Assembly: GCA_001003475.1 (NCBI GenBank)
Contig: LCPF01000001.1
Coordinates: forward strand, 37,910 to 101,909
DNA: 64,000 nucleotides
Direction: 5' to 3'
Source: Candidatus Jorgensenbacteria bacterium GW2011_GWA1_48_11
GTDB lineage: Bacteria > Patescibacteriota > Minisyncoccia > UBA6257 > GWB1-50-10
The position numbers and the translations under genes were made by a program. The notes beneath the pieces are model-generated. The model made no database searches and had not been told where the DNA came from. It saw only the letters and a list, made by a program, of their open reading frames with translations. This document shows, one piece after another, positions 3,908 through 22,064 of the stretch. Numbering within the stretch: the first letter of the stretch is position 1; every line of letters starts with the position of its first letter.

Positions 3908-4192
3908 ATGAATCCCGTTAGAGGCAACCAATTCTATTATATCTATGTCTTACGGAGCAAAAAGAATAAAATTTGGTATACAGGGCTGGCCGTTGATTTG
4001 CGGAAACGCTTTAATCAACACAGCAAAAACATCATTGGCTGGACCAAGAATAGAGGTCCTTTTGAACTGATTTATTATGAAGCCTGCAAAAATATCACTG
4101 ACGCAAGGTCGAGAGAAAAATACCTTAAATCTGGCATGGGTAAGCGATATCTCAAAAACAGATTAAAGCGCTTCCTGCCTCTAACGGGATGA
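3908..4192 (+). CDS. GIY-YIG nuclease family protein (YhbQ/UPF0213-like), copy 1
   Basis: YYIYVLRS...IWYTGLAVDLRKRFNQH...REKYLKS: GIY-YIG catalytic core with conserved R and E/K residues. Its stop overlaps the fmt start (ATGA). Confidence 0.75.
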   Translation: MNPVRGNQFYYIYVLRSKKNKIWYTGLAVDLRKRFNQHSKNIIGWTKNRGPFELIYYEACKNITDARSREKYLKSGMGKRYLKNRLKRFLPLTG

Positions 4193-6515: not shown

Positions 6516-9356
6516 CTAACTCAAAAGACCGCGCTTCACCACAACCGCTCTTAAGGTGGAGAGGTCGTCTTTCAGCTCAAATGACTTTTCTAATCGCGGG
6601 TCGTTTGCGATACCAGCCCAAAAAGCAAGCTTTGCTTTAACTTCTTTATCGTCTACATGCGATTGTTTTGTTATTGAGATAAGCGTCTCAAGGGGCATGT
6701 ATAGACCATTGTTTACTTCTGAACCAGAGAAAAACGGATCGCCCTTAAGCACGTCATCAAGGTTTTTCCACCCCTCTTTAAGGGGATACTTACTCCAGTA
6801 CAATTTTATAGCTCCGGGATGTTGCTTTAGTCCTCTACGTGCAGCATTTCGGATTTTATTAATCTCGTTCGTCGCCTCCTTAGATCCCGACCAACTTTGA
6901 TAAAGGACGTAGAAGAAATTTTCCTCGTATTTATAAATAATTTTCTTCCCAAGAAAATATCTTGCTTGCAAATCTTCAAAGACCGATTTTATAGCGTTCT
7001 TAACATCTTGATCGAAGTATTTTAACAGCTTGTCAAAAGCGGCTTCTAAGCGCTGATGTATGGAGCTACCACTACCACGTTCATTATTAGCTAGAGAATT
7101 TAATACAATATACTTCGCGCCAATATTTACAGATGACGAACTTAAAATCTTCTTCAAGATTTTAAGAACAGATTTTAGTCCTTCATCCGCTTTTTCTCCA
7201 CTTTTGTCTTTTTCAATCACGGATAGGATTTGAAAAACAAATTGGTAGATAGCCTCATCATATTCAGTGTCCCCAACGTTCATTGGTTGCAGAACAATCT
7301 TTCCATTCACAAGTCGTTTCCCTAATTCGTCCATGATCCTAATATTCAAATCCTCAGAAACATCCCACATTTCATGCACAAATCTTGCATATCCAACCAA
7401 GTCTTTGTTATTTAGCGTCGAGAGAGTCTTGTTGGATTTATCACTCTGGTGCTGTTGGTAAATTCGGCTGTATTTTCTATATCCCGTCTCAACACTTTCT
7501 GAAACCAACGAGAGATAATCGTGCATTATTTCTGGGTATGACGTGGTCCCAGAATATTGAATTTTGTTTTTTGTGTCATAACTTCTTTGCAGAAAATCAA
7601 GATAATAATGCATAACAAGTCCGATATATTTCTCAGTATTAATTTTTTCCTCATCCGAAAGCGTCCTTCCAATAATTGATTCAACCCAACCAATCAGTCC
7701 TGTCTTTTTTTCCTCCAATTCTTTCTTAATAAGATAACCGCCTAAATTGTCTTTTTCTGTTTGTGCAATAAGTAAATGGATTGTTTTCATAAAAAATTCG
7801 ATAAGAAATGGATGCTGGATCTTGATAAATTCCAACATAGTAACGTCACTAAATCGAATCGCATTTACCTTTTGTCCACCACTTCTGTCCCTAAACGATC
7901 CATAGAAAAACTCCAGGGCGGTAGAAACTCGAGCAACTACTCTAGGCGACTGCTCGGCAAGAACTCCAACCACGTAACCCATGGCGTCACTGTGTTTTCC
8001 CATGAAGGAAATGTTTGGGTGTGAAAAGGTATGTGGATAAATTTCTGTAGGAGTATCAACGCCTTCACTCTTCGCGATATTTGTTAACAAATCGTCGACA
8101 TATTTATATCTAATTAGTGGCTCAACTGGTGGAAGAAATATTCTCTGCACAACACTTTTCGGATCGTCATAAAAGAAGGTTTGCAGCGGCCGAACACGCG
8201 AATCTACGCTTTCGAATGTCTGCAAATGCTTTCTAAATTCTGGCTCTGAGATACAAAAAATAAAAATCAACTTTATGGGAAGGCCAGATCTTCCTTCGTT
8301 TTTGAAACGCTCAACAATTTCAACGAGGCGATATATTTCATCAAGCTGTCCTCGCTCAATCTCATCCACCATGATAATCCATAGCAACTCTTTAATTTCA
8401 GGAATATTTCCAAAAATCCTACCGACTATTTTTGAGGTAAATACTTTCTTGTCACCGTAAAATTGATCGTATGCGACGGCCCTTGTTTTTATCAACCCCC
8501 AATTAAAAAGCGACAGTATCTTGAGAAGGTCCGACAAAAGTCCATTTCCTGATTCTCGAAGAATTGACTGCATGAACGGAAGATACGATGCGACATCCAA
8601 TTTGGGGTATCTTTCTGTGAGGGTTTCGATCCAACGTTCCGCAAAAAGCCTAGAAAAATCTTTTGCCTCATTTGTTTCCGTAAGCGAAATATAGGTATAT
8701 AAAGTTTTTATTGGATCGAAGTTTTCGATAATCATCCTTGCATAAGACGACTTACCAAAACCAAGTCCTCCATAAATTCCAACAACATTCACATAATTAT
8801 TGAGTTTTTTAAGGCCGCTTGCCGCGTTCTTTGCTGAGGGTTCAAAAGTTAGCTTGTCATCTTTTGGTCCGACCGCCCCCGCGGCAAAGTTTCTAAAGGT
8901 AAGATCGGGAGATTGACATAAATGCTCGTTCAGCTTTTTTAAGAGCATTGTTATCAGTGCCAGCACTAGGCCGATCCAGCAATATCCTGACAACCAAAAT
9001 TCAGTCGGGTGGGCTATTAAGGCGACGGCCGACCACAGGATTAGACCATTCACAAACCCCCAATAAAAATAGAAAACCCATGAAGGCTGGTTGTGTAGCC
9101 CTTGCTTTTTTAACTGAGCCGCTGGTCTTATAAAAAAATGGATTAAACCAATGACAATCAGTAAAGCGAGAGTACCAAGAACAATGAAGATGGTTTGGTT
9201 TGCATAAAATAAATCCGTAACTAAATCCCGGATTGGAGGTCCAAATTTATAAAACAAGAGGAAGTTAAGGAACGAGATGGAGACAACCCAAAACAACCTC
9301 CACGCAAAAAGGTGTTTGTAGAATATGTCAAGCCCCGGCAGTGATTTATCCTCCAT
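6516..9356 (-). CDS. membrane-anchored P-loop NTPase, KAP/STAND-like (946 aa)
   Basis: Four predicted N-terminal TM helices. Walker A GGLGFGKSS (GxxGxGKS) about 45 aa after the last TM, and Walker B IIMVDEIER (hhhhDE). A roughly 500-aa alpha-helical C-terminal region. AT-rich relative to flanking genes. Confidence 0.6.
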   Translation of the reverse strand: MEDKSLPGLDIFYKHLFAWRLFWVVSISFLNFLLFYKFGPPIRDLVTDLFYANQTIFIVLGTLALLIVIGLIHFFIRPAAQLKKQGLHNQPSWVFYFYWGFVNGLILWSAVALIAHPTEFWLSGYCWIGLVLALITMLLKKLNEHLCQSPDLTFRNFAAGAVGPKDDKLTFEPSAKNAASGLKKLNNYVNVVGIYGGLGFGKSSYARMIIENFDPIKTLYTYISLTETNEAKDFSRLFAERWIETLTERYPKLDVASYLPFMQSILRESGNGLLSDLLKILSLFNWGLIKTRAVAYDQFYGDKKVFTSKIVGRIFGNIPEIKELLWIIMVDEIERGQLDEIYRLVEIVERFKNEGRSGLPIKLIFIFCISEPEFRKHLQTFESVDSRVRPLQTFFYDDPKSVVQRIFLPPVEPLIRYKYVDDLLTNIAKSEGVDTPTEIYPHTFSHPNISFMGKHSDAMGYVVGVLAEQSPRVVARVSTALEFFYGSFRDRSGGQKVNAIRFSDVTMLEFIKIQHPFLIEFFMKTIHLLIAQTEKDNLGGYLIKKELEEKKTGLIGWVESIIGRTLSDEEKINTEKYIGLVMHYYLDFLQRSYDTKNKIQYSGTTSYPEIMHDYLSLVSESVETGYRKYSRIYQQHQSDKSNKTLSTLNNKDLVGYARFVHEMWDVSEDLNIRIMDELGKRLVNGKIVLQPMNVGDTEYDEAIYQFVFQILSVIEKDKSGEKADEGLKSVLKILKKILSSSSVNIGAKYIVLNSLANNERGSGSSIHQRLEAAFDKLLKYFDQDVKNAIKSVFEDLQARYFLGKKIIYKYEENFFYVLYQSWSGSKEATNEINKIRNAARRGLKQHPGAIKLYWSKYPLKEGWKNLDDVLKGDPFFSGSEVNNGLYMPLETLISITKQSHVDDKEVKAKLAFWAGIANDPRLEKSFELKDDLSTLRAVVVKRGLLS

Positions 9357-9463: not shown

Positions 9464-10570
9464 TTATTTTCTCTCAAGTTCCTCAAGCGGAGGATAGGTT
9501 TTTTGTTGGCCTGCGATAAGCTTCGGCACCTCTTTGCCCTCTCCAAGCGCTAGTAATCCCCTGAGTCGTAAATCAATAACTCCGACGTCCATGTACATAT
9601 CCTTATAGGATTTGTAACGTTTTTTCCACGCCTGGTGATGCGCATGAATTTCGGATTTCAAATCTCCAGCAAGCGTTAACAGCTGATGAGCTACGCCGTT
9701 AACTTTGTCGCCATACTCATTTCCTGCCAGATATTTGTAGACTTCGTTTACGGCCCTCATTTTCTCGGCATTGGATAACTTCAGTAGTGCGATCCGCACC
9801 AAGCTTTGCCGCAAAACATATGTGACTGGCTCAACATTTACGGGGCTGATGACAAATACCGTGTTGGAAACGAAATAAGACTGCCTCTTAGCCGGAAAAG
9901 CATTGGTAACGAGAACCGCGAAGTTAGCTTGCCTGAATTCGCGCGCGTCAGCGGCCTGCTGGACATGGTTCTGGCTGAAAGACTTAACCTTTTTGCATTC
10001 GTAAACGATCTTACCGACAGGCTTATCCTGCTCCATAACGGTTTGAATAATATCCCCGCCCTTCCCCGGATGGTCGAAGTGGTCGTGCGGAAATAATTCC
10101 TTAAGTTTTGCTAGAAGCTTGTCTTCTTCGAGTAAGCCTTCAATCTGTGGCGTAATTCCTTTTTCCATTTGCTCTCTCAGGCGTTTTATTTCTTGATCGC
10201 CCTTCTCTTTTTTCTCCAAAGCGATTTTCAAGCTTCGCTCCAATTGCCCCATTTTATTCTTAGTCTGGGCAACGCCTTTCGCGGTTTGCGTTTCCAATTT
10301 CTTCTTAAACGTTTCCTGGTCTAGTTTCCGCTGTTCACGGAAGTTGGCGGCAAGTTTGTGTTTTTCTTCTGCTACGGCGCGCTTTGCGGCACGCTGCAAT
10401 TCAGCCTTCTCTTTTTTCCATAATTCGGCTTTGCGCTTTAATTCTTTTCGCTCCTCTTCGAGGTGTTTAATCTCTTCATGTTTCGCTTTCCAAATACCGA
10501 GGGCTTTATCATATTCCTCCTGAGTCAACGGCTTACCGCATACGGGGCATTTTTTTGTTTGGTTTTCCAT
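9464..10570 (-). CDS. DUF2130-like protein: N-terminal CPxCG zinc-knuckle, long coiled coil, C-terminal PD-(D/E)xK-like domain
   Basis: KCPVCGKPL at the N-terminus; about 130 aa of K/E-rich heptad-like sequence; C-terminal GGDIIQ...(18 aa)...YECKKV fits a D...E-x-K nuclease motif. Confidence 0.5.
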   Translation of the reverse strand: MENQTKKCPVCGKPLTQEEYDKALGIWKAKHEEIKHLEEERKELKRKAELWKKEKAELQRAAKRAVAEEKHKLAANFREQRKLDQETFKKKLETQTAKGVAQTKNKMGQLERSLKIALEKKEKGDQEIKRLREQMEKGITPQIEGLLEEDKLLAKLKELFPHDHFDHPGKGGDIIQTVMEQDKPVGKIVYECKKVKSFSQNHVQQAADAREFRQANFAVLVTNAFPAKRQSYFVSNTVFVISPVNVEPVTYVLRQSLVRIALLKLSNAEKMRAVNEVYKYLAGNEYGDKVNGVAHQLLTLAGDLKSEIHAHHQAWKKRYKSYKDMYMDVGVIDLRLRGLLALGEGKEVPKLIAGQQKTYPPLEELERK

Positions 10571-10583
10571 AGATATAGTTGGA

Positions 10584-11393
10584 TTACGCCGTGTCTATTT
10601 CTTTGGCGACTTTCTCGATTAAAGATTTCAATGAAACCCGGTCAAGCGTAATTATTTTTTTTGTCCCATAAATAAGGTTGAGCTCTTTCATTAAATCCCT
10701 AATTTTCTCTCTAGATTGTGCAAATTTCTTGTTCCCCCCGAGGTATTCAAGGACGGTAATAAGTATTCGGTCAGACCGCCCCATGGCGCGTTCAAGAACC
10801 TGCTGATAGATATCCTGCATTGAAAGGAGGATGCGGGTGAAATAGTATGGGTCCTTCTTTTTCAAATCGCCGAAGAAACCCGGATCGCGCTCCCACGGCG
10901 CGTAAGTGAGATGGGCGGCCCACCAGAGCCGCGCGATGGCGTGCCTGCGCAAGTCCCGGTCGTTCCCCCTTACAAACCAGTGCTCTAAAAGCTGGTTGAT
11001 GGCGCGCTGCTTGGCGTCGTCTGTTTTGAGGTCTTTGTATTCTCCGGGCAGGCCCCATCGTACAAGTGAGTACTTGCGGAATTCGACGTGGCTTAGGTAT
11101 GCCCAAAGCCTCGGATCGGAAGCCTGAGTTTCGTCTATGGCGCCGTAAAACTCATGGAGAGCTATGGCATTTTCTAGGTCTGTAGCGACCGGGTCCCTCT
11201 TTAGAGCTTTCAAGAATGGGGATTTACCTTGAACGGGGATTGTCGAAAGGAGTAGGTCCTTGTCTTTCACAGGATAGGAATGTTGGAAATAAGTCTTAAG
11301 AGAACTGCCGGAGCGCAGATCGGCCCTCATTTGCTCGATGACCGCCCGCTTGAAGATTTTTTGGTATTGGGTTTTATTCATACTCTCGTTCAT
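10584..11393 (-). CDS. hypothetical protein (island gene C, 269 aa, Trp-rich)
   Basis: Complete ORF that overlaps by 20 nt the 3' end of the upstream ORF 11374..12222 (gene B), which suggests translational coupling; no recognisable domain; conserved-looking WAYLSHVEF...RLWWAAHLTY segment. Confidence 0.55.
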   Translation of the reverse strand: MNESMNKTQYQKIFKRAVIEQMRADLRSGSSLKTYFQHSYPVKDKDLLLSTIPVQGKSPFLKALKRDPVATDLENAIALHEFYGAIDETQASDPRLWAYLSHVEFRKYSLVRWGLPGEYKDLKTDDAKQRAINQLLEHWFVRGNDRDLRRHAIARLWWAAHLTYAPWERDPGFFGDLKKKDPYYFTRILLSMQDIYQQVLERAMGRSDRILITVLEYLGGNKKFAQSREKIRDLMKELNLIYGTKKIITLDRVSLKSLIEKVAKEIDTA

Positions 11394-12222
11394 CGTTGGT
11401 CTCGAGCAACGACCCTATGCTTTGGAATCCCCGTGAGACGGGGTTGTCGAGAATTTTCTGCGCAACATCAAACGGGTCCTTGTCCCTAAGGCCCTTACCG
11501 TCAAGGATGGCCTCCAAACGGCCGAACCAGCTCATGTCCGCGTAGTCGCCGTTCCCGTTCTGTACTTGGTGCACCGCATCGATCAAGACTGGGAAGACTA
11601 TGGAAGCGTGCAACATCCCCTCTGCGAGCTTCTGGCCCCTGACATCCATGTAACTCTGCCAATCGGTTTTTGAAAGGATGACGGTAATTTTCTCGCCTTC
11701 ATAGTCGATCTGCATTGGCCCTTCGTGATGGCTGCCCACTACTATCGACATGAAAGACGAGACCGGTGGCCGGAGAGGATCGAAATTCTTCTCGGCTATG
11801 AACGAAGTGTACCCTCCGACTGCGAGGACATCACCCGCTTCTACGTCGAAAGATGCTCCTTCGTAATCTGGATGGCATTCGCTCGGCTGGTAGCCGGGGA
11901 TGTCCTTGTCGGCGCACACGTAGAAGCCAACCGCCACTCTTTCGCGGACCAGTTTCGACGGAATCATGAACCTGTCGATTGTTTTCCTCGTAGAATAGCT
12001 TGACCGGAAGAAAGTGCTTTGGCATTCGACTTCAGTCACGAATGACGCCTTTCCGTCCCGGATCAGCTCCTCGATCTTCGCGTTCTTCAAATTAAATATC
12101 GGGTTCAGCGTAATCTCGTCTTTTTTTAGTTCATAATGGAAGGGAGCGACGCGGAAAAAACCGCCGAGGTCGTCTTCGTTGCCAAGCACCGGATGCGGGT
12201 ATGATTTTGAATTAACCCTCAT
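11374..12222 (-). CDS. hypothetical protein (island gene B, 282 aa)
   Basis: Complete ORF that overlaps by 11 nt the 3' end of the upstream ORF 12212..13324 (gene A); no recognisable domain; possible metal-binding SHHEG patch. Confidence 0.55.
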   Translation of the reverse strand: MRVNSKSYPHPVLGNEDDLGGFFRVAPFHYELKKDEITLNPIFNLKNAKIEELIRDGKASFVTEVECQSTFFRSSYSTRKTIDRFMIPSKLVRERVAVGFYVCADKDIPGYQPSECHPDYEGASFDVEAGDVLAVGGYTSFIAEKNFDPLRPPVSSFMSIVVGSHHEGPMQIDYEGEKITVILSKTDWQSYMDVRGQKLAEGMLHASIVFPVLIDAVHQVQNGNGDYADMSWFGRLEAILDGKGLRDKDPFDVAQKILDNPVSRGFQSIGSLLETNDEREYE

Positions 12223-13324
12223 AGCTTTCTATGCCTAAGGCATATTTTTTCCTCGACTCGAGCCTCACGGCAAGGCGGATGGTCTGCCCGTTCTTAATGG
12301 AAAGGCCCTTGATCATAGATCCATCTGTTTCATATTTCGCCTTGGAGTCGATGTCCGTCGCTGATTTTATTTCGGCTGGATAGCTGTTGTCGTCGCCGAC
12401 CGCCACCAGCCTTATCCCTCCTTCGCACTCCTCGCGGCCCGTGATTGCGAAATGGTATTCGGGGCCTTCTTTCGTTTTCTGGATGAAGCTCCGGAAGGAT
12501 ATTGCGGAGGTTTTTATCCTGACGCCTTCTTCCCCTCCCGCTTCCGGCCCGGTCGGCCTTCCATGCGGCCCTTTGCCTGGGCCTTTGGGTGGCGTGCGCT
12601 TCACCCCTCCCGGCTCCTTGTTCGTAACTATGCTTTTCCGGATGACTTTTTCCACGTCCGCAGGGGATTCTTCTTTATTCGCGCCGACTTCGCGCCCGCT
12701 TTCCTGGGTTCCTTCCAGGTCGGTCGGATCGAACGCGGCCCCTTGCTGCGGAAGGTAGTCCCTGTCTTCATTGTCTGGCAGGTACTTATCCAACCCCGGG
12801 ATGTCCTGAGGTTCAGTAGTAACGGTCCCTCCCATGCTTTTCAACGATTCCTTTATGAAATCGTCCAGCTCGTGCATGGCCGCCCATCCGTTCTTGGCCC
12901 GGTCCCTGTCCCATTTATCGTGGGCGGGCGGCTCCATGTCTCGGAGAAGCCTGTTGCCGCGCTCGTCGTCACAGATGAAGACTCCGGCGTAAGGCTCCCT
13001 CAGCACGCGGGATGCTTTTTCCGTAACGAGCATTTTCGGCTTCCGGACCATCATGACTTTGCTGGGGTAATTTTCCTGCTTGCGCACGAAAAGCAGGACC
13101 TTCCCGAGGTGCTTCAACTCCTGTTCGAATTTCTGCTCCCAGTTCGTGGCCGCTTCGTAGAAGAATTTCGCGTCCTCCGCATCGAATTCGCTGAACTTCT
13201 CCGGTAGGTTGTCCTTCGTTATGCGGATTTCAGAGCCGTCCTTGACCACTACTTCAAGGTCGCCGTGAAGGATGGCAAGCCAAAAATTTTGAACGCACGC
13301 ATAGAAAGAAACTACCGCATTCAT
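12212..13324 (-). CDS. hypothetical protein (island gene A, 370 aa, with central Gly/Pro/Glu-rich disordered linker)
   Basis: First gene of the island operon. Globular N- and C-terminal parts are separated by a low-complexity segment KEPGGVKRTPPKGPGKGPHGRPTGPEAGGEEG. No recognisable domain. Confidence 0.55.
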   Translation of the reverse strand: MNAVVSFYACVQNFWLAILHGDLEVVVKDGSEIRITKDNLPEKFSEFDAEDAKFFYEAATNWEQKFEQELKHLGKVLLFVRKQENYPSKVMMVRKPKMLVTEKASRVLREPYAGVFICDDERGNRLLRDMEPPAHDKWDRDRAKNGWAAMHELDDFIKESLKSMGGTVTTEPQDIPGLDKYLPDNEDRDYLPQQGAAFDPTDLEGTQESGREVGANKEESPADVEKVIRKSIVTNKEPGGVKRTPPKGPGKGPHGRPTGPEAGGEEGVRIKTSAISFRSFIQKTKEGPEYHFAITGREECEGGIRLVAVGDDNSYPAEIKSATDIDSKAKYETDGSMIKGLSIKNGQTIRLAVRLESRKKYALGIESYEG

Positions 13325-14344: not shown

Positions 14345-16932
14345 CTAACCGGGATTTCTGGCGAATACAGTCCTCGCCAAAAGCTTCCTTACTTCTTCAA
14401 GCAAAAGGATCGAAGCGGCAATCGAGGCCGCGTAAACCCATTCCCAAGCGGTAAGCGGCACCGTATGCAGGAATCGCTGCATAAAAGGATGATAAACCGC
14501 CAAGAACTGCAGCCCGATTATCAAAATCGTCGCACCGACCAAAAACATGTTTTTGAAAGGATTGATGGAAAAGACAGATTTGTCTTCACTCTTGCAATTC
14601 CACGCGTTGAACCACTGGAAAACCGCAAGCGTGGTCAGGGTCATAGTGAGCGCTTTCTCCAAATCACCGTCAAGGTACTGCCTAAACACAAAAAGAGACC
14701 CAAGAGCAATAATGATTCCCATAAACACCATTCGCTTCATCGCGAACGAATCAAGAATATACCTGGCGGGCTTCGCATAGCGGCGGCCGAGCAGGCCGTC
14801 CTCCCGCGGCTCCATCGCGAGCGAGACGTCGAGGAAGCCGTCGGTGACGAAGTTAAGCCAGATAATCTGAACCGGCAAGAGCGGCAGGGGGAGCCCCATG
14901 AACATCGCGCCGGAAATGGTAAGCACCTCCCCGATGCCGGTCGAGAAAAGATAAAGAATAACCTTCCTAATGGTCTTGTAGATATTCCGGCCCTCTTCAA
15001 CGGCGGAAATGACGCTCCCGAAATTGTCGTCCAAGAGCACGAGGTCGGCGGCTTCCTTGGCCACCTCGGTGCCGATTTTTCCCATCGCCACGCCGAGATC
15101 GGCGGCCGCGAGAGAAGGCGCATCGTTTACGCCGTCGCCGGTCATGGCAACCACCTCGCCCCGTTTTCTGAACAGCTCGATGATCCGCATTTTATGTTCG
15201 GGGGTCACGCGCGCAAAAACATTGCAGATTCCGAATTTTTTCGACAATTCTTCATCCGAGAGCTTTTCCAATTCTTCTCCGGTGATGACGCCATCCTTCC
15301 CATCCGCAAGCCCCGCTTCTTCCGCAATCGCACGAGCGGTAATCTTGTGATCCCCGGTGATCATCACGACCCGGATGCCGGCCTGTTTGGCCCTTTCGAT
15401 GGCGCCTTTCACTTCTTCCCGCAACGGGTCTTTCATGCCGAAAAAACCGCCAAAAATAAGCGGCGGCAATTTTCCGCTAGTCACGGAGTCGCCCGCGTCC
15501 GGGTTGATCGCAAAAGCGAGAACCCGAAAACCCCGCTGGGACATGTCGAAAAATACGGCTTCGAGCCCTTCTTTTTCAGCGCCGGAAAGTTTCTCTGATT
15601 TCTTCGCTCGCCAGACGCGATCACAAAGCTCGAGGATCTTTTCCGGCGCGCCAACAACGGTCAGAAAATTCCTGTTTTCAAACCTGTGAATCGTAGCGTG
15701 ATACTTGGTGAGATAATCGAAAGGCAGTTCGGCTATCTTGGGTGATTCCTGCTCGCCATCCCTGAAGCCGATCTTGCGGCCGAACACTCCCAAGGCCGCC
15801 TCGGTCGGGTCGCCGGACACTTTCCAGATATTCTTTCCTTCCACATACATTGCATGAGCATTGGAGCAAAACAAAGCAACTCTTCCCGCCAGCACAAGCT
15901 CCGGATGATTCAATGGCTCGACGGCCGCTCCCTTCAGGAGCACTCTTCCTTCCGGCTCATAGCCGCGCCCCTCAACATCAAATGTCTTTCCGTCAACATA
16001 CACTTTCTCAAGCGTCATCTCATTTTTAGTGAGAGTGCCGGTTTTATCGACGGCGATGATCTTCGCCTGCCCCAACGCCTCGACTGCCTGTAATTTCTTA
16101 ACCAGCACATTGCGCTTAGTCATGCGCCACACTCCCGAAGCCAAAACCAGGGTCATGACTATCGGCAGGCCTTCCGGAATAATCGAGACCGCAAGAGACA
16201 CCACGGTTGCGAACATCTGCCTCAACGATTCTCCGGCGGCAAGACCAAAAACCATAAGAACGGTTCCGATCGAAAACACGGTGATGATGATAAGGCGGGA
16301 AAGACAACAACCGCCTTGCCGTTGCCGCTTGCGATATTGGTACCCTTGAAAATCATGTTCCTTTGGTCATACGCAGAAATGCGAATATTGCCCAACGCAT
16401 CGCTGGTCTTTAAGACCGGAACAGACTCGCCGGTAAGGCTAGCCTCATTAACGCGGAGGGAATTGACGGAGATAAGTCGGGCGTCGGCGGGAATTTTATC
16501 GCCTTCCTGAAGAATGACGACGTCACCGGGAACAATTTCCTTGTCGGGTACGATCATGATTTTACCGTCCCGCAACACCGAAGCGGAAGTCTCCACGAAT
16601 CTCCGGAGAGCCAGCAACGTATATTGAGCTCTTCCTTCCTGAATTGTTCCCACGATCGCGTTGAATATGAGGACCAGGAAAATAATGACCGCATCAGCGG
16701 TCTCGCCCATGAATAAAACAACCGCCGCGGCGGCCATCAAAACATAGATGAGCGGGCTTAAGAACTGCGAAAGAAATATGGAAAATACGCCGGCGACTTT
16801 TGGTTCCGGGAGAGAATTGGGGCCATACCCGACAAGACGCTTACTGGCCTCTTCAAAACTCAGCCCCGATTCGTCAGAATCGAGTTCTTCAAATATCTCC
16901 GACGGTCGTTTCGCATACCAACGAATACTCAT
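14345..16932 (-). pseudogene. P-type cation-transporting ATPase (type II, Ca2+/Mg2+-like) split by a frameshift or small deletion near 16300
   Basis: ORF 16222..16932 encodes the N-terminus, the first TM pair and the actuator domain (LTGESVP), then runs out of frame after GNGKAVVV. ORF 14345..16279 encodes the rest (DKTGTLT phosphorylation site, MITGDHKITA, GDGVNDAPSLAAADLGVAMG, C-terminal TM helices). Its upstream in-frame extension (LSRLIIITVFSIGTV) is the expected M3 helix. About 20 aa of the expected ATG..T..GKIA..TPLQ segment appear to be missing. This could instead be an assembly error. Confidence 0.5.
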
Positions 16933-17001: not shown

Positions 17002-17910
17002 CTAAACCCTTAAATACTTCCTGATGGCGAAAACCGAGGAAACGATCCCCAAACCGATACTGAACAAAAGCTGATAAAGGAAAAGGTTCAGGAAATTCTC
17101 GCTGAAATAAGAATTCAAATCGATGTCCTGGATGAAACTGTTCACGTACGGGGAAACGAAATTGATCAAAGGGATGAAAATCAGAAAGCCGACGGTGCCG
17201 GCGATCAAGCCGTAAACAACGCTCTCGAAAACATAGGGACCGCGAATAAAAGCGTTCGAGGCGCCGACGAGCCGCATGATGCCGATCTGGTCGCTGTTCG
17301 AGAAAATCGCGAGACGGATGGTATTGAAAGTGACGGCCACGGCCAGGAACGCAAGGAACAAGGTCAGAATGAACCCGCCGTTTTTCAAAATACTGACCAG
17401 CGAGTTCAACCGGTTAATGACCACTTGGTTTTGGGCATAAGTCACTTTCCCGACCAAATCCTGCAAATTCGGCGAATTCAAATAATCGGCGATGGCCTGG
17501 TACTGGCTCGGATCCTTGGCCTTGACGTTCAGGGAAGCCAGAAGCGGATTTACGTCCAGCTCGGACAAGGTTTGGGTCACGGTTTCCTCGCCGGCATGCT
17601 TGGCCTTAAATTGAACCAAGGCCTCATCCTGCGAAATATAATCAACGCCCTTGACCTCGGTCAGGCCCTCGAGCGACCGCTTGATGTTCAAAATGGAATC
17701 TTCGGGCGCGTTGCTCTTGAAATAAACGCTGATATCAATCTTGTCCTGCAGGGAGGAGATGGCTGTCTTCGCAACAACATTAAAGAGGATCAAACCCTCG
17801 AAAACAACACCCGCCAAAAACATGATGCTGATCGTGGAAACCGACAGCCAGCCGTTCCGCAGAAAGCCCTGCCAGCCGTATTTGATTATTCTCGCCAAAG
17901 TAACGAACAT
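17002..17910 (-). CDS. ftsX: cell-division ABC transporter permease FtsX
   Basis: Four-TM FtsX-like permease topology with a large periplasmic loop; lies immediately downstream of ftsE (1-nt gap). Confidence 0.8.
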   Translation of the reverse strand: MFVTLARIIKYGWQGFLRNGWLSVSTISIMFLAGVVFEGLILFNVVAKTAISSLQDKIDISVYFKSNAPEDSILNIKRSLEGLTEVKGVDYISQDEALVQFKAKHAGEETVTQTLSELDVNPLLASLNVKAKDPSQYQAIADYLNSPNLQDLVGKVTYAQNQVVINRLNSLVSILKNGGFILTLFLAFLAVAVTFNTIRLAIFSNSDQIGIMRLVGASNAFIRGPYVFESVVYGLIAGTVGFLIFIPLINFVSPYVNSFIQDIDLNSYFSENFLNLFLYQLLFSIGLGIVSSVFAIRKYLRV

Positions 17911-17911
17911 A

Positions 17912-18595
17912 TTAACTGATTATAAATCGGCCGTGGAGGTCGTCTTTAAGCATTCGGCCGTTTTCGAGGGTAATCACGCGCTGACCCAAGGTATTCACGA
18001 TCTCTTTATCGTGAGTGGCTAAGATCACCGTGCTGCCAAGCTCGTTAATCTTCATCAAAAGGCGGATTACCTCCCAGGTGTTAAAGGGGTCGAGGTTGCC
18101 GGTCGGCTCATCGGCAATGATCACGTCCGGCCGGTTAATCATCGCCCGGGCGATCGCCACCCGCTGCTTCTCGCCGCCAGAAAGTTCCTTGGGAAAATTG
18201 AACATCTTGTCCTTCAGGCCGACCATGTCCAAAACCTGAGGCACGAGCTCGTTGATCTCCCGCTGGGGCCGGCCCTCCACCTCGAGGGCGAAAGCCACGT
18301 TTTCAAAAGCGTTCTTTTGGGCGAGCAGTCGAAAATCCTGGAAAATCACGCCGACGTGACGGCGAAATTCGGGCATTTCATCCGGCTTCAATTTATTGAT
18401 CTCGTAAGAACCAAAGAAGATCTGGCCTTTCGAGGGCCTTTCCTCGCCGATCAGGAGCCGGACAACCGTCGATTTGCCGGCGCCGGAACGGCCGACAATC
18501 GAAACGAATTCGTTGGGCTGGATTTTAAAGGAAATTTTGTCCAAAGCAACGGCATTACCGTTGTAATCTTTGGTAACGTTTTGAAAAACTATCAT
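17912..18595 (-). CDS. ftsE: cell-division ATP-binding protein FtsE
   Basis: Walker [13 protein letters not shown] signature [15 protein letters not shown] and Walker [13 protein letters not shown]; FtsE-sized (227 aa). Confidence 0.9.
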
Positions 18596-18603
18596 CAGTG
18601 TCT

Positions 18604-19308
18604 TTATTTTACTCCCGCTTTTAGCAACAAATCAAGATTGCCTTCCAAAACTTCTTCCACGCGCGATATTTTAAAGCCGGTCGCGTGGTCTTTCACTTGC
18701 TTATAGGGATGCAAAACGTAAGAACGGATTTCATGACCCCATTCCGGCGCCACCCTCACCCTTAAATTACCGACGGCTTCTTCGTGCCGGTCTTCCATTA
18801 ATTTTGCGATCTTGATTTTGAGCAAATGCATGGCTTTTTCCCGGTTGGAGGATTGGGAACGCTCAACCTGGGAAGAAGAGCTTAATCCGGTCGGCAAATG
18901 GACGATCCGCACGGCCGTTTCCACCTTGTTCACGTTCTGGCCGCCGGGTCCGGCCGAACGGGAAAATTCTATTTTCAAATCTTTTTCCGGAATCTGGATT
19001 TTCACTTCGTCCACTTTCGGCAAATCCGGCAGGACTTCCACCAAAGCAAAGGAAGTGTGCCGCAGTTTCTTCGCATCGAACGGCGAGATCCGCACCAAAC
19101 GGTGCACGCCCGATTCATCCTTAAGCCTTTCGTAAACGCCCATGCCCGAGATTTCCAAAGTGTTCTCGCTCACGACCGCCTTCTTCCATTTCTTGAGATC
19201 GGCATAACGGGAATACATCCGCAAAAGCATTTGCGCCCAATCTTTGGCGTCGTCCCCTCCTGCGCCCCCTAAAACGGAGATTGTTACTGTGTTGGAATTA
19301 TAATTCAT
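18604..19308 (-). CDS. prfB: peptide chain release factor 2-like, lacking N-terminal domain 1 (234 aa)
   Basis: SPF tripeptide (RISPFDAKK) for UGA/UAA recognition; GGQ motif (GPGGQNVNKVETAVRIVHLPTG); RF2-like C-terminus. It starts 3 nt after the stop of the upstream MBL gene, with an in-frame TAG immediately upstream. There is therefore no room for domain 1 or the programmed +1 frameshift site. Confidence 0.7.
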   Translation of the reverse strand: MNYNSNTVTISVLGGAGGDDAKDWAQMLLRMYSRYADLKKWKKAVVSENTLEISGMGVYERLKDESGVHRLVRISPFDAKKLRHTSFALVEVLPDLPKVDEVKIQIPEKDLKIEFSRSAGPGGQNVNKVETAVRIVHLPTGLSSSSQVERSQSSNREKAMHLLKIKIAKLMEDRHEEAVGNLRVRVAPEWGHEIRSYVLHPYKQVKDHATGFKISRVEEVLEGNLDLLLKAGVK

Positions 19309-19311
19309 GAA

Positions 19312-19947
19312 CTAGTAATCTGTTTTCTTGTTCAATTCCGGAACAATAAATTTGATGCCCAGTGGTTCTAAAACAACAGACGGTAATTTATTTGTTGACC
19401 CGATGGATTTAAGCATGCCATCGTGCACCGGAAAACAAATCTTCGGCTTTAACTCTTTGGCATATTCAATGCCGTCCGACAGACGCAGCCACGGTCCGGC
19501 CACAGGAAGAGCCAAAATCTCGATTGGTTTACGAGGATTTGTAAAAGCGTCACCGGGATAAAAGAACTTGTTTGCGATAAAATAACCGGTATTTTCTGTT
19601 TGCGGTATCGCGGAATGCATGACGGCATGTTTTTTACCGAATGCTTCGATAGATATTCCTTTTTCTTCCAGAATTTGACCGTCTTCTAAGAAGACATACC
19701 TTATCCCTTCTTTAGCCAATAAATTTCCCACCGAATGATTCGTTACTATTTTCGCTTTTGGATTATTGACCAAAATAGTCTTTAACGAATCTAGGTGCAA
19801 ATGGTCCTGGTGTTCGTGGGTAATGAGGACAACGTCAATATTTTTTGCGTCGTTCTGGCTCGTGGAATAATTGCCGGGGTCGGTCAATATCCTCAAATTG
19901 CCTTCTTCAATCAAAAGGCAACAATGACCAAATTTAGTGATTTTCAT
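19312..19947 (-). CDS. MBL-fold metallo-hydrolase
   Basis: HxHxDH motif (ITHEHQDHLHLD) and downstream His/Asp ligands; 211 aa. Confidence 0.8.
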   Translation of the reverse strand: MKITKFGHCCLLIEEGNLRILTDPGNYSTSQNDAKNIDVVLITHEHQDHLHLDSLKTILVNNPKAKIVTNHSVGNLLAKEGIRYVFLEDGQILEEKGISIEAFGKKHAVMHSAIPQTENTGYFIANKFFYPGDAFTNPRKPIEILALPVAGPWLRLSDGIEYAKELKPKICFPVHDGMLKSIGSTNKLPSVVLEPLGIKFIVPELNKKTDY

Positions 19948-19948
19948 G

Positions 19949-20019
19949 AGCCGGAGAGAGGAATCGAACCTCCGTCTTTGCTTTACGAAAGCATTGCTCT
20001 GCCATTGAGCTACTCCGGC
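19949..20019 (-). tRNA. tRNA-Thr (anticodon CGT)
   Basis: Reverse complement folds as a cloverleaf: acceptor GCCGGAG/CTCCGGC, D-arm GCTC-AATGGCA-GAGC, anticodon loop TTCGTAA (U33, CGT, A37), T-arm GGAGG-TTCGATT-CCTCT. 71 nt. Lies directly upstream of the MBL gene start. Confidence 0.75.
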
Positions 20020-20030
20020 TAAAAGCGACC

Positions 20031-20954
20031 CTACTTCTTTTTATTCAAAAAATCGTAAATATTCAAGACCGCCTTCACGCTGTCGCCGGCCGAGATGTTA
20101 TTCTGGCGGTAAAGGCCGTCCGTGACGTCGCCGGCCGCCCAAATCCCCTTTTCGCTCGTGGCCTGGGTTTTGGGATCGGTCACTATTTCCCCTTTCTGAT
20201 TTATAGACACCAAATCTTTAACGAGGGCGCTATTGGGTACAATACCGATCTCGACGAAAACGCCACTCAAGTCCAATTCTTTTTTTTGACCGCTTGTTCC
20301 ATCCAAATACCTCAGACCCTTCAGGATTTCGTCGCCGAAAACTTCTTTGGTATCCGCGTTCAAAATTATTTCCACTTTTGAATTGGCTTTAATCTTATCC
20401 TGCATTTCCGGATCGCCCTTCAAGGCGCCGCTCCGTTGCAGCAAATAAATCTTCTTGGCGTAGGGCAGCAAATCATTCACCGCCTCGAGGCCGGCGTTGC
20501 CGCCGCCCACGACTGCCACCGTCATATTTTTGAAGATGGGAGCATCGCAGGTCGAACAATAAACCACGCCCCGGCCCTCGAATTCTTTTTCGCCGGGAAC
20601 GCCGAGCTTTTTCCGGCTGCTGCCGGTCGCAAGCAAGACAGTTTTGACTTCCAGAATTTTTCCCTGGTCGGTCGCAAGGCGGAAGCCGACGCCGATTTTT
20701 TCTATTTTCGAAACGCGGTCACTATCCAAAATTTCAACCCCTTCTTGGGCCCGCAAATGATCTTCCAAGGCCTTGGCCAGGTCAAAGCCGGAAATTGATT
20801 TCACGCCGATCCAATTCTGGACATCGGCTGAAACCAGAGATTGGCCGCCGAAAGAATCGGTGATCAAAACCGTTCTGATTTTTTTGCGGGCGGCGTAAAC
20901 GCCAGCGGCGACTCCGGCCGGCCCGCCGCCAACAATAACAAGATCATAAACCAT
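20031..20954 (-). CDS. trxB: thioredoxin-disulfide reductase
   Basis: FAD-binding GxGxxG (VIVGGGPAGVAAG), redox-active CSTCD, NADPH-binding GGGNAG. I chose the start at MVYDL (20954), not the track's upstream Met (21026), because it abuts the stop of the upstream redoxin gene. Confidence 0.85.
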   Translation of the reverse strand: MVYDLVIVGGGPAGVAAGVYAARKKIRTVLITDSFGGQSLVSADVQNWIGVKSISGFDLAKALEDHLRAQEGVEILDSDRVSKIEKIGVGFRLATDQGKILEVKTVLLATGSSRKKLGVPGEKEFEGRGVVYCSTCDAPIFKNMTVAVVGGGNAGLEAVNDLLPYAKKIYLLQRSGALKGDPEMQDKIKANSKVEIILNADTKEVFGDEILKGLRYLDGTSGQKKELDLSGVFVEIGIVPNSALVKDLVSINQKGEIVTDPKTQATSEKGIWAAGDVTDGLYRQNNISAGDSVKAVLNIYDFLNKKK

Positions 20955-20958
20955 AAAA

Positions 20959-21189
20959 TTACAAATGGAGCGCCTTCGCGATCGCAAGCTTGTTAAAGCC
21001 CACGAAAATCTCGCCGTTGACGTCAATCACCGGTACGCCCAACTGATGCGATTTCCTGACCATTTCTTCCCTCGCCTTATCATCCGAGGCAACGTTCAAT
21101 TCTTCGTAAGCAATTTTGTGCTGAGCGAAAAAATCTTTGGCCATCCGGCAATAAACGCAGGACGGGGTGGTATAAATTTTAACCGACAT
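20959..21189 (-). CDS. glutaredoxin-like / NrdH-like redoxin
   Basis: 76 aa, CVYC active site near the N-terminus, thioredoxin-fold length; immediately upstream of trxB. Confidence 0.7.
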   Translation of the reverse strand: MSVKIYTTPSCVYCRMAKDFFAQHKIAYEELNVASDDKAREEMVRKSHQLGVPVIDVNGEIFVGFNKLAIAKALHL

Positions 21190-21806: not shown

Positions 21807-22064
21807 TCAGGACCGTAGGCTACGCCAAATCCTTCTTTTAAGCTGTGCATAGACCTTGCCGAATTGCTTAATTTTCTTTTCCCTGTCTTTAGCATCATCC
21901 GAATTGGCGTAGCCTTCAAAATAGACTAATTGCCAAGGAGAATATCTCTTAGTCGCTAATGATTTTCCAGAGTTATGCTCTTGCAATCTCGTTTGAAGAT
22001 TTTTGGTATAACCAATATACAATTCTTTCCTGGTATAACTTCTTAAGATATATACAAAATGCAT
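21807..22064 (-). CDS. GIY-YIG nuclease family protein (YhbQ/UPF0213-like), copy 2
   Basis: VYILRS...LYIGYTKNLQTRLQEHN...REKKIKQ: same GIY-YIG architecture as the copy at 3908..4192. Confidence 0.75.
   Translation of the reverse strand: MHFVYILRSYTRKELYIGYTKNLQTRLQEHNSGKSLATKRYSPWQLVYFEGYANSDDAKDREKKIKQFGKVYAQLKRRIWRSLRS

Follow-up and report, generated by a model that had tools for sequence, protein, structure and literature searches.

A Release Factor 2 without Domain 1 at the Position of prfB in Candidatus Jorgensenbacteria

Introduction

Domain 1 of class I release factors is the handle through which RF3 and the L11 stalk are contacted, and a programmed +1 frameshift site is a common, albeit not universal, feature of prfB, the gene for release factor 2 (RF2). 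To our knowledge, the dispensability of domain 1 has so far been addressed only with engineered Escherichia coli proteins, plus inference from the accessory factor PrfH. This work concerns a gene found in a 64-kb stretch of DNA (the window) from a groundwater member of the Patescibacteria, Candidatus Jorgensenbacteria bacterium GW2011_GWA1_48_11. It specifies an RF2 of 234 amino acids (aa) that has domains 2, 3, and 4 only. An earlier inspection of the letters alone, hereafter the sequence-only reading, had proposed that the product is either a minimal housekeeping RF2 or a PrfH-like paralogue.

Several properties of domain 1 make such a protein plausible. According to PMC1586002, domain 1 is the least conserved release factor domain, and the experiments of Mora et al. 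(2003) summarized there indicated that it is needed for the interaction with RF3 but not for codon recognition or hydrolysis. The same source states that truncated release factors function in vivo (Mora et al. 2003) and that engineered factors lacking domain 1 keep codon specificity and release activity while losing the RF3 interaction, and it mentions slow growth in connection with truncated factors. It also describes RF3 as non-essential and missing from small genomes, and RF2 as more active on ribosomes lacking L11 (Tate et al. 1984, via PMC1586002). No prior report of a natural housekeeping RF2 without domain 1 was found in the searchable literature; neither a survey of prfB frameshifting (PMC12421855) nor a review of release factor evolution (PMC6514570) mentions one.

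Results

The short RF2 gene and its product

The gene and its principal features are listed here in the direction of transcription.

19309 to 19314, minus strand: stop codon TAG (19312 to 19314) of the upstream metallo-β-lactamase (MBL)-fold gene and spacer TTC (19309 to 19311), directly 5′ of the RF2 ATG and in one frame with it, from the sequence
18604 to 19308, minus strand: open reading frame (ORF) of RF2, putative prfB orthologue of "type 0" (domains 2, 3, and 4 only), ATG start, TAA stop, 234 aa
19159 to 19164, minus strand: residues N49/T50, junction of a 10-residue deletion in domain 2 (a hairpin corresponding approximately to residues 167 to 176 of E. coli RF2), from a HMMER alignment to Bacillus subtilis RF2
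19078 to 19086, minus strand: SPF codons (residues 75 to 77), the RF2 "anticodon" motif, from the translation
18937 to 18945, minus strand: GGQ codons (residues 122 to 124), the peptidyl-tRNA hydrolysis motif, from the sequence

The length of the ORF, its start 3 nucleotides (nt) after the MBL stop codon, the TAG in its frame immediately upstream, and the presence of SPF and GGQ had all been described in the sequence-only reading and were borne out by the sequence. The TAG at 19312 to 19314 excludes an in-frame start farther upstream. The locus is 100% identical in three independent public assemblies of the same organism (loci L001 to L003), and the gene is therefore not an assembly artefact. 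The NCBI entry for this protein, from the 635,647-bp contig of Candidatus Jorgensenbacteria bacterium GW2011_GWA1_48_11, carries the annotation release factor 2.

The best NCBIfam match of the 234-aa protein was the prfB model (TIGR00020), with 278.6 bits over positions 113 to 352 of the 353 in the model. The prfA, PrfH, and ArfB models scored 192.6, 75.5, and 52.1 bits, respectively. The match to the PrfH model (TIGR03072) was limited to residues 51 to 177 and fell short of the cutoff of 166.65 bits, and that to the ArfB model (NF006718), with a cutoff of 100 bits, was limited to residues 103 to 136. In Pfam, the RF-1 domain was complete, while the PCRF profile was matched only over its positions 97 to 194 of 194. 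A comparison with PDB sequences gave the same order: RF2 chains were found with E-values of 1e-46 to 3e-53 and 38–43% identity, and the best matches were RF2 (2.6e-53), RF1 (1.3e-39), and PrfH (2e-14). Residues 3 to 234 of the query aligned with residues 123 to 362 of E. coli RF2. The AlphaFold2 model, with a predicted local distance difference test (pLDDT) value of 83.8, begins at the first strand of domain 2 and was matched by Foldseek to free RF2 with template modelling (TM) scores of 0.83 (1gqe) and 0.77 (2ihr), at a probability of 1.00. Within the tripeptide that distinguishes RF2, S75 and P76 are invariant and F77 is nearly so (16 short plus long Patescibacteria RF2 proteins, alignment A1). 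The GGQ motif is invariant in alignments A1 and A2, and the W/G-x-IRSY switch-loop region is likewise invariant in relatives. These results showed that the protein retains the elements required to read UGA and UAA (SPF and the fold of domains 2 and 4) and to hydrolyze peptidyl-tRNA (GGQ).

Genomic context and stop codon usage

The genes surrounding the short RF2 gene are the following.

20031 to 21026, minus strand: thioredoxin-reductase-like (trxB-like) gene, upstream of tRNA-Thr(CGU)
19948 to 20019, minus strand: tRNA-Thr(CGU), upstream boundary of the prfB slot (ARAGORN; Rfam RF00005)
19312 to 19947, minus strand: MBL-fold hydrolase gene, 211 aa, Lactamase_B_3 (Pfam PF13483, 3.3e-26)
17912 to 18595, minus strand: ftsE (ABC ATPase), 8 nt 3′ of the RF2 stop codon (Pfam ABC_tran)
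17002 to 17910, minus strand: ftsX, 1 nt after ftsE (Pfam FtsX_ECD and FtsX)

The run that follows the tRNA (MBL, RF2, ftsE, and ftsX) is compact, with intergenic gaps of 0, 3, 8, and 1 nt, and the assignment of the downstream genes to ftsE and ftsX agreed with their Pfam matches. Since tRNA-Thr(CGU) abuts the ATG of the MBL gene, there is no coding room upstream. The in-frame TAG, the MBL gene, and the tRNA leave no space for domain 1 or the frameshift site, as had been claimed, and a programmed +1 frameshift site (CUU UGA C) is impossible in the 234-aa gene. A tblastn search found neither an RF2 domain 1 nor a second release factor anywhere in the 64-kb window.

The same location is occupied by full-length prfB in related lineages. 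The closest full-length RF2, P0121 (loci L008/L009; 347 aa with a normal domain 1), shares 60% core identity with the short protein and clusters with Wolfebacteria members; its gene starts 4 nt after a tRNA-Thr(CGU) and is followed by ftsE. The order prfB-ftsE-ftsX was also found for P0122 and for P0133 from Spechtbacteria, and ftsE lies downstream of the RF2 gene in most Patescibacteria loci examined. Short RF2 genes in loci L004 to L007, L012, L013, and L172 occupy the slot of the full-length prfB. A tRNA-Thr(CGU) ends 0–8 nt 5′ of the RF2 gene in L005, L008, L013, L018, L026, L043, and L052. The RF2 ATG is 3 nt after the tRNA in L005 and overlaps the encoded CCA end of the tRNA in L013, and the distance between trxB and the RF2 gene in L172 is only 84 nt, approximately the size of a tRNA. 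Because the tRNA directly precedes short RF2 genes in these relatives, it represents a hard upstream limit. Judged by gene order, the short gene is a positional orthologue of prfB from which about 110 codons appear to have been deleted. An RNase P RNA (Rfam RF00010) was also observed just upstream of the tRNA-Thr-prfB unit in L005 (5511 to 5860, plus strand, 120 bits) and L006 (4813 to 5206, minus strand, 101 bits); its orientation varies among relatives, and in the window the trxB-like gene holds that position.

Across Paceibacteria the distance from the 3′ end of tRNA-Thr(CGU) to the next start codon is 0–8 nt, whichever gene follows.

Junctions between the tRNA-Thr 3′ end and the start codon: window, 19945 to 19950; L005, 5997 to 6003; L013, 9996 to 10001; L043, 3219 to 3222; L052, 9855 to 9858; L008, 1284 to 1291

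This arrangement suggests tRNA-mRNA co-transcripts in which processing of the tRNA 3′ end would leave a nearly leaderless message. A scan of the tRNA-MBL-prfB-ftsE-ftsX segment for promoters and terminators produced matches at chance level only. Shine-Dalgarno-like motifs located 6–16 nt 5′ of the start codon were found in just 4 of 66 putative genes; with so few such sites in the genome, a frameshift device that depends on a Shine-Dalgarno sequence would be out of place. The short prfB could then belong to one operon with tRNA-Thr and ftsEX, its translation depending either on coupling or on a message with almost no leader.

The codon that RF2 is expected to read is in regular use. In a crude set of 66 window ORFs, 32 end in TAA, 25 in TGA, and 9 in TAG. 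The ORFs for ribosomal protein L9 (rplI, the example given in the sequence-only reading), Fe/Mn superoxide dismutase, and UDP-GlcNAc 2-epimerase stop at TGA a few residues or less from the point where their Pfam profiles end. Given these profile ends and the share of TGA among the ORFs, UGA is a genuine and frequent stop codon here.

Conservation and loss of domain 1 among relatives

The best 120 database homologues of the short protein are all 227–278 aa long and 70–100% identical to it, and those that carry a name come from Jorgensen-, Brenner-, and other Parcubacteria/Paceibacterota. The GxGG motif lies at offset 10–19 in 109 of 118 homologues, as in the window protein. Among six type-0 genes, the nonsynonymous substitution rate (dN) was 0.14–0.29, and its ratio to the synonymous rate (dN/dS) was 0.05–0.11 in the 5 of 15 pairs for which dS could be estimated, dS being saturated in the other 10. 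The comparison with related genomes thus showed a short RF2 that is conserved clade-wide and under purifying selection. An artefact or a decaying pseudogene has a practically negligible probability as an explanation of the gene. Broken versions of domain 1 do exist in relatives (locus L011 and protein P0308, described below); against this stand the identical sequence in independent assemblies, more than 100 homologues with the same N-terminus, invariant catalytic and decoding motifs, the dN/dS of about 0.05–0.11, and the use of UGA as a stop codon, and the conservation data already contradict such decay.

The short RF2 can be placed in a series of domain-1 reductions among related Paceibacteria, which runs from the full length through copies broken by a nonsense codon or a frameshift and trimmed forms to about 46 aa and, finally, none. 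At least 80 RF2 loci were parsed from GTDB species genomes, a set that is not a census and that added at least two further type-0 loci. A full domain 1 of 100–120 aa was found in Azam-, Specht-, Buchanan-, Wildermuth-, and Uhrbacteria and in Saccharimonadia. The canonical CTTTGA frameshift motif was present in Specht-, Buchanan-, and Wildermuthbacteria and in loci from outside Patescibacteria, and in no type-0 or type-1 locus among those examined. Type-1 proteins have 44–50 aa before domain 2, keep the "FW-D--AQ" helix region, and have lost the rest of domain 1. They are encoded at no fewer than about 25 loci, including those of Nomura-, Adler-, and Taylorbacteria, where a tRNA-Thr often ends 0–8 nt before the ATG.

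Type-1 loci: L017 to L034, L040 to L043, L048, L051, L052, and L074 (for example L052, 9857 to 10717)

Type-0 proteins have no N-terminal extension, with 12 aa present in L044. In a neighbor-joining tree of the core region, type 0 was monophyletic in 200 of 200 bootstraps and type 1 formed a separate clade in 197 of 200. Since the two types are separate clades, domain 1 was reduced at least twice independently. The N-terminal regions of Wolfe- and Liptonbacteria-like RF2 proteins range from about 50 to 125 aa. Locus L011 (5001 to 6071) contains a Wolfebacteria-like prfB whose domain 1 is intact except for an in-frame TAA at codon 64, which is TTA in P0121; gene callers divide this gene into pieces of 63 and 245 aa. 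In P0308, an A-run within domain 1 carries a frameshift, for which a sequencing error is possible. From their sequences, both look like cases of domain-1 decay in progress and may be intermediates of the loss. Short proteins labelled RF2 in other phyla (P0155, P0189, P0244, P0298, and others) were also considered and rejected as gene-calling artefacts with internal Met starts or junk C-termini.

RF1 was surveyed in metagenomes using as bait the RF1-like C-terminus of the protein P0123, and 80 Patescibacteria RF1 loci were recovered. Most of the RF1 proteins are 311–350 aa long with about 85 aa before domain 2, and their genes are downstream of rpmE, the rpmE-prfA order being conserved among these loci. 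Three loci depart from the usual length. L151 (contig Ga0265296_1001404, about 8271 to 8993) codes for a 240-aa RF1 that has the PxT motif and lacks domain 1, with a spacer of 3 nt between the rpmE stop codon and its ATG; in L131 about 18 aa of the N-terminal region are left, and L114 has a frameshift within domain 1. No RF1 locus could be tied to a type-0 RF2 genome by tetranucleotide correlation with the window or by genes shared with it. The bait protein itself (286 aa, from a 1,572-bp ENA contig) is a chimera. Its N-terminal two-thirds are RF2-like, with SPF and the hairpin deletion, its C-terminus resembles RF1 (GDRSEKIRTYN...TDHR), and the final 100 residues match the RF1 of L092 at 100% identity. 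The protein is the product either of a chimeric assembly or of RF1/RF2 gene conversion.

Orthology of the short gene

Most probably, the locus represents prfB itself, the housekeeping orthologue carried by a clade of Paceibacteria that comprises Jorgensen-, Colwell-, and Brennerbacteria and their relatives, with about 110 codons of domain 1 deleted. The slot of prfB, the scores of 278.6 bits for prfB versus 75.5 bits for PrfH, the retained SPF, and the clade-wide purifying selection all support the first of the two options offered in the sequence-only reading, the minimal housekeeping RF2. The protein would act as the terminator of the cell at UGA and UAA. Positional orthology, conservation across the clade, the small genome, and the lack of a full-length relative tied to these lineages point to it as probably the only RF2 of the cell.

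There are several points that weigh against this assignment. The engineered RF2 without domain 1 of Mora et al. reportedly supports only poor growth in E. coli; full function here would therefore require compensation. The 278.6 bits are below the curated TIGR00020 cutoff of 370, because the first third of the model (positions 1 to 112) has no counterpart in the protein. The grouping of type 0 with the full-length Wolfebacteria-like clade had only moderate support (127 of 200 bootstraps). With a window of 64 kb on a contig at least 635 kb long, a second, full-length prfB could lie elsewhere. Of the 120 closest full-length relatives of P0121, none bears the name of Jorgensen-, Colwell-, or Brennerbacteria, and none is encoded on a long contig with a type-0 RF2; both are weak checks, and only about one quarter of these relatives carry a name.

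The second option was that of an accessory paralogue, PrfH-like or otherwise dedicated to ribosome rescue, with a normal full-length prfB elsewhere in the genome. PrfH is likewise devoid of domain 1, according to PMC1586002, the score of the protein is under the curated prfB cutoff, and about 90% of the genome is outside the window. Nonetheless, we consider this option very unlikely. The PrfH model was matched well below its cutoff and over part of the protein, SPF is retained, and no rtcB gene is present within 10 kb on either side of the RF2 gene, where the neighbors are the trxB-like gene, tRNA-Thr, the MBL gene, ftsE, ftsX, and a P-type ATPase gene. The short gene is in the exact tRNA-Thr-prfB-ftsEX slot of the full-length prfB of sister lineages, and the core tree groups type 0 with Paceibacteria prfB (Wolfebacteria-like, with the moderate support mentioned) rather than as a separate family. 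Moreover, the genomes are only about 0.5–0.8 Mb, and the long contigs with type-0 genes yielded no full-length relative. The PrfH-like paralogue of the sequence-only reading is thus disfavored with respect to a housekeeping prfB.

Hairpin deletion and codon specificity

The short RF2 differs from canonical proteins at a second place, within domain 2. The motifs GxGG and GVHR are spaced 52 residues apart in 111 of 116 type-0 proteins, against 62 in E. coli and all 32 non-Patescibacteria RF2 proteins compared. A spacing of 52 was also found in 23 of 117 scored relatives, which belong to part of the Wolfebacteria-like clade and include P0121. Since this full-length protein shares the deletion, the loss of the hairpin is older than the loss of domain 1. 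The core carries a net charge of +7.5 in type 0, +2.3 in Wolfebacteria-like proteins, +0.1 in type 1, and −6 in RF2 from outside Patescibacteria. With both the acidic domain and the acidic hairpin gone, the net positive core would probably offset electrostatically the binding energy lost, and we infer that the hairpin loss and the positive charge compensate for ribosome contacts that would no longer be made.

An effect of these two changes on specificity could also be considered. In E. coli RF2, substitutions at E167, E170, E172, and K177 (E167K, E170K, E172K, and K177R) increase release at UAG and UGG by 30–70 fold and allow prfA to be deleted, and the broadened variants are toxic owing to termination at UGG (PMC7530605). 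The hairpin that is missing spans E167, E170, and E172 and ends beside K177. It is conceivable that the truncation was accompanied by a change of function in which codon specificity was relaxed, for example toward UAG, and RF2 became a broader or even the sole class I factor. Such a change would fit the position of the deletion at these sites, its presence in 111 of 116 type-0 proteins and in none of the 32 non-Patescibacteria RF2 proteins, the charge of +7.5, and the lack of an RF1 gene tied to a type-0 genome. It is unlikely, however, given that RF1 genes are common in related Patescibacteria (the 80 loci), that TAG is the rarest stop codon in the window (9 of 66) yet normally used, that the hairpin deletion predates the loss of domain 1 and is found in 23 of 117 relatives including P0121, and that the broadened E. 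coli variants are toxic. An RF2 that reads UGA and UAA remains the preferred reading.

The neighboring hydrolase gene and other features of the window

The sequence-only reading described the RF2 gene as fused head-to-tail with the MBL gene. The adjacency and the shared frame were confirmed, as plain juxtaposition with no functional signal. By tblastn, the MBL gene is found at this position only in L001 to L003, which are the same organism. In relatives there is nothing between the tRNA and the RF2 gene (L005, L013, and L172), or there are inserts unrelated to MBL (L006/L007 and L012), with no credible Pfam family for the genes in L006 and L012. Being specific to this species, the adjacency is incidental, and the MBL gene would have been inserted later between the tRNA and prfB in this species alone.

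The shared frame, with only TAG-TTC between the two ORFs, brings to mind that the function of domain 1 might be supplied by another polypeptide, either a stand-alone domain-1 protein or an MBL-RF2 product made by read-through of the TAG. This is extremely improbable. The MBL gene is confined to one species, the relatives have no gene or unrelated genes in its place, and no domain-1-like sequence was found in the 64-kb window. A word-based search with the Wolfebacteria domain 1 gave only broken prfB fragments; this word-index search yielded 18 candidates and missed P0121, and it is too insensitive to exclude a stand-alone domain 1.

Other features of the window were also observed. The gene for the P-type cation ATPase is split into overlapping ORFs (14345 to 16279 and 16222 to 16932, with the break at about 16303). 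The split is caused by a 91-nt deletion relative to L001 and L003, which are otherwise 100% identical and carry the gene intact (892 aa). Either the gene is a pseudogene or this record contains an assembly error. A co-directional block (9464 to 13324 and 6516 to 9356) codes for proteins of 370, 282, 269 (DUF6339), and 368 aa (DUF2130), followed by one of 946 aa without Pfam match, and might be a mobile or defence-type island. Two small stand-alone proteins, one of 85 aa (21807 to 22064, minus strand) and one of 94 aa (3908 to 4192, plus strand), have similar N-termini, and the former has a Pfam GIY-YIG match (PF01541) through the annotation of L001.

Discussion

The observations can be accommodated in a simple course of events. 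A deletion would have removed about 110 codons of domain 1 so that the coding sequence now begins at the first β-strand of domain 2, and the truncated gene would have come to lie immediately after the tRNA-Thr(CGU), which in sister lineages stands before full-length prfB. The resulting RF2 is predicted to do without the RF3 and L11-stalk contacts of domain 1 and to dissociate from the ribosome spontaneously. Its synthesis would not be autoregulated by +1 frameshifting, because the site was deleted along with domain 1.

The type-0 RF2 adds a structural form to a known factor and belongs to a broader erosion of release factor domain 1 across Paceibacteria. A bolder proposal is that much of Paceibacteria may use class I release factors with no need of domain 1. 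The Jorgensen/Colwell clade has lost domain 1 of RF2 entirely, at least one further clade has lost part of it, and at least one RF1 (L151) lacks domain 1; the hairpin loss and charge of type 0 might, in addition, relax discrimination toward a single broader factor. We regard this proposal as tentative and rather doubtful. If it were true, domain-1-free termination in Paceibacteria would imply a cycle independent of RF3 and the L11 stalk.

The clade-wide loss, with intermediates surviving in sister lineages, represents a natural experiment on what domain 1 contributes. A protein of about 230 aa would provide a minimal RF2 scaffold for structural and synthetic-biology work, and the loss indicates the extent to which Patescibacteria have reduced their translation machinery. 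In practice, type-0 proteins are not accepted by curated prfB models and are then named "release factor-like", and they could be overlooked by marker-gene sets or completeness estimates based on TIGR00020.

Compared with canonical RF2 (TIGR00020; 1GQE, 2IHR, and 4V5E), the type-0 protein has the same SPF and GGQ motifs, fold of domains 2–4, C-terminus, and slot upstream of ftsEX. It differs in that it lacks domain 1 (about 110–120 aa, the region of contact with RF3 and the L11 stalk), the +1 frameshift site, and the 10-residue hairpin of domain 2, and in that its net charge is positive whereas that of the canonical protein is strongly acidic. The engineered truncated RF1 and RF2 of E. coli likewise consist of domains 2–4 only, but the truncation described here is natural, fixed in a clade, and accompanied by the loss of the hairpin and the reversal of charge. 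ArfB, ICT1, and C12orf65 share the GGQ domain (52 bits for the ArfB model, residues 103 to 136); they have a basic C-terminal tail and no codon-recognition domains 2 and 4, both of which the window RF2 keeps. PrfH, or RFH (TIGR03072; 7SA4 and 9MOR), is the RtcB-linked rescue factor and, according to PMC1586002, a class I release factor homologue in which domain 1 is naturally absent. Its "anticodon" region is different, and it is always found beside rtcB and distributed sporadically by horizontal transfer, whereas the RF2 of the window keeps SPF, has no rtcB nearby, and is inherited vertically throughout its clade.

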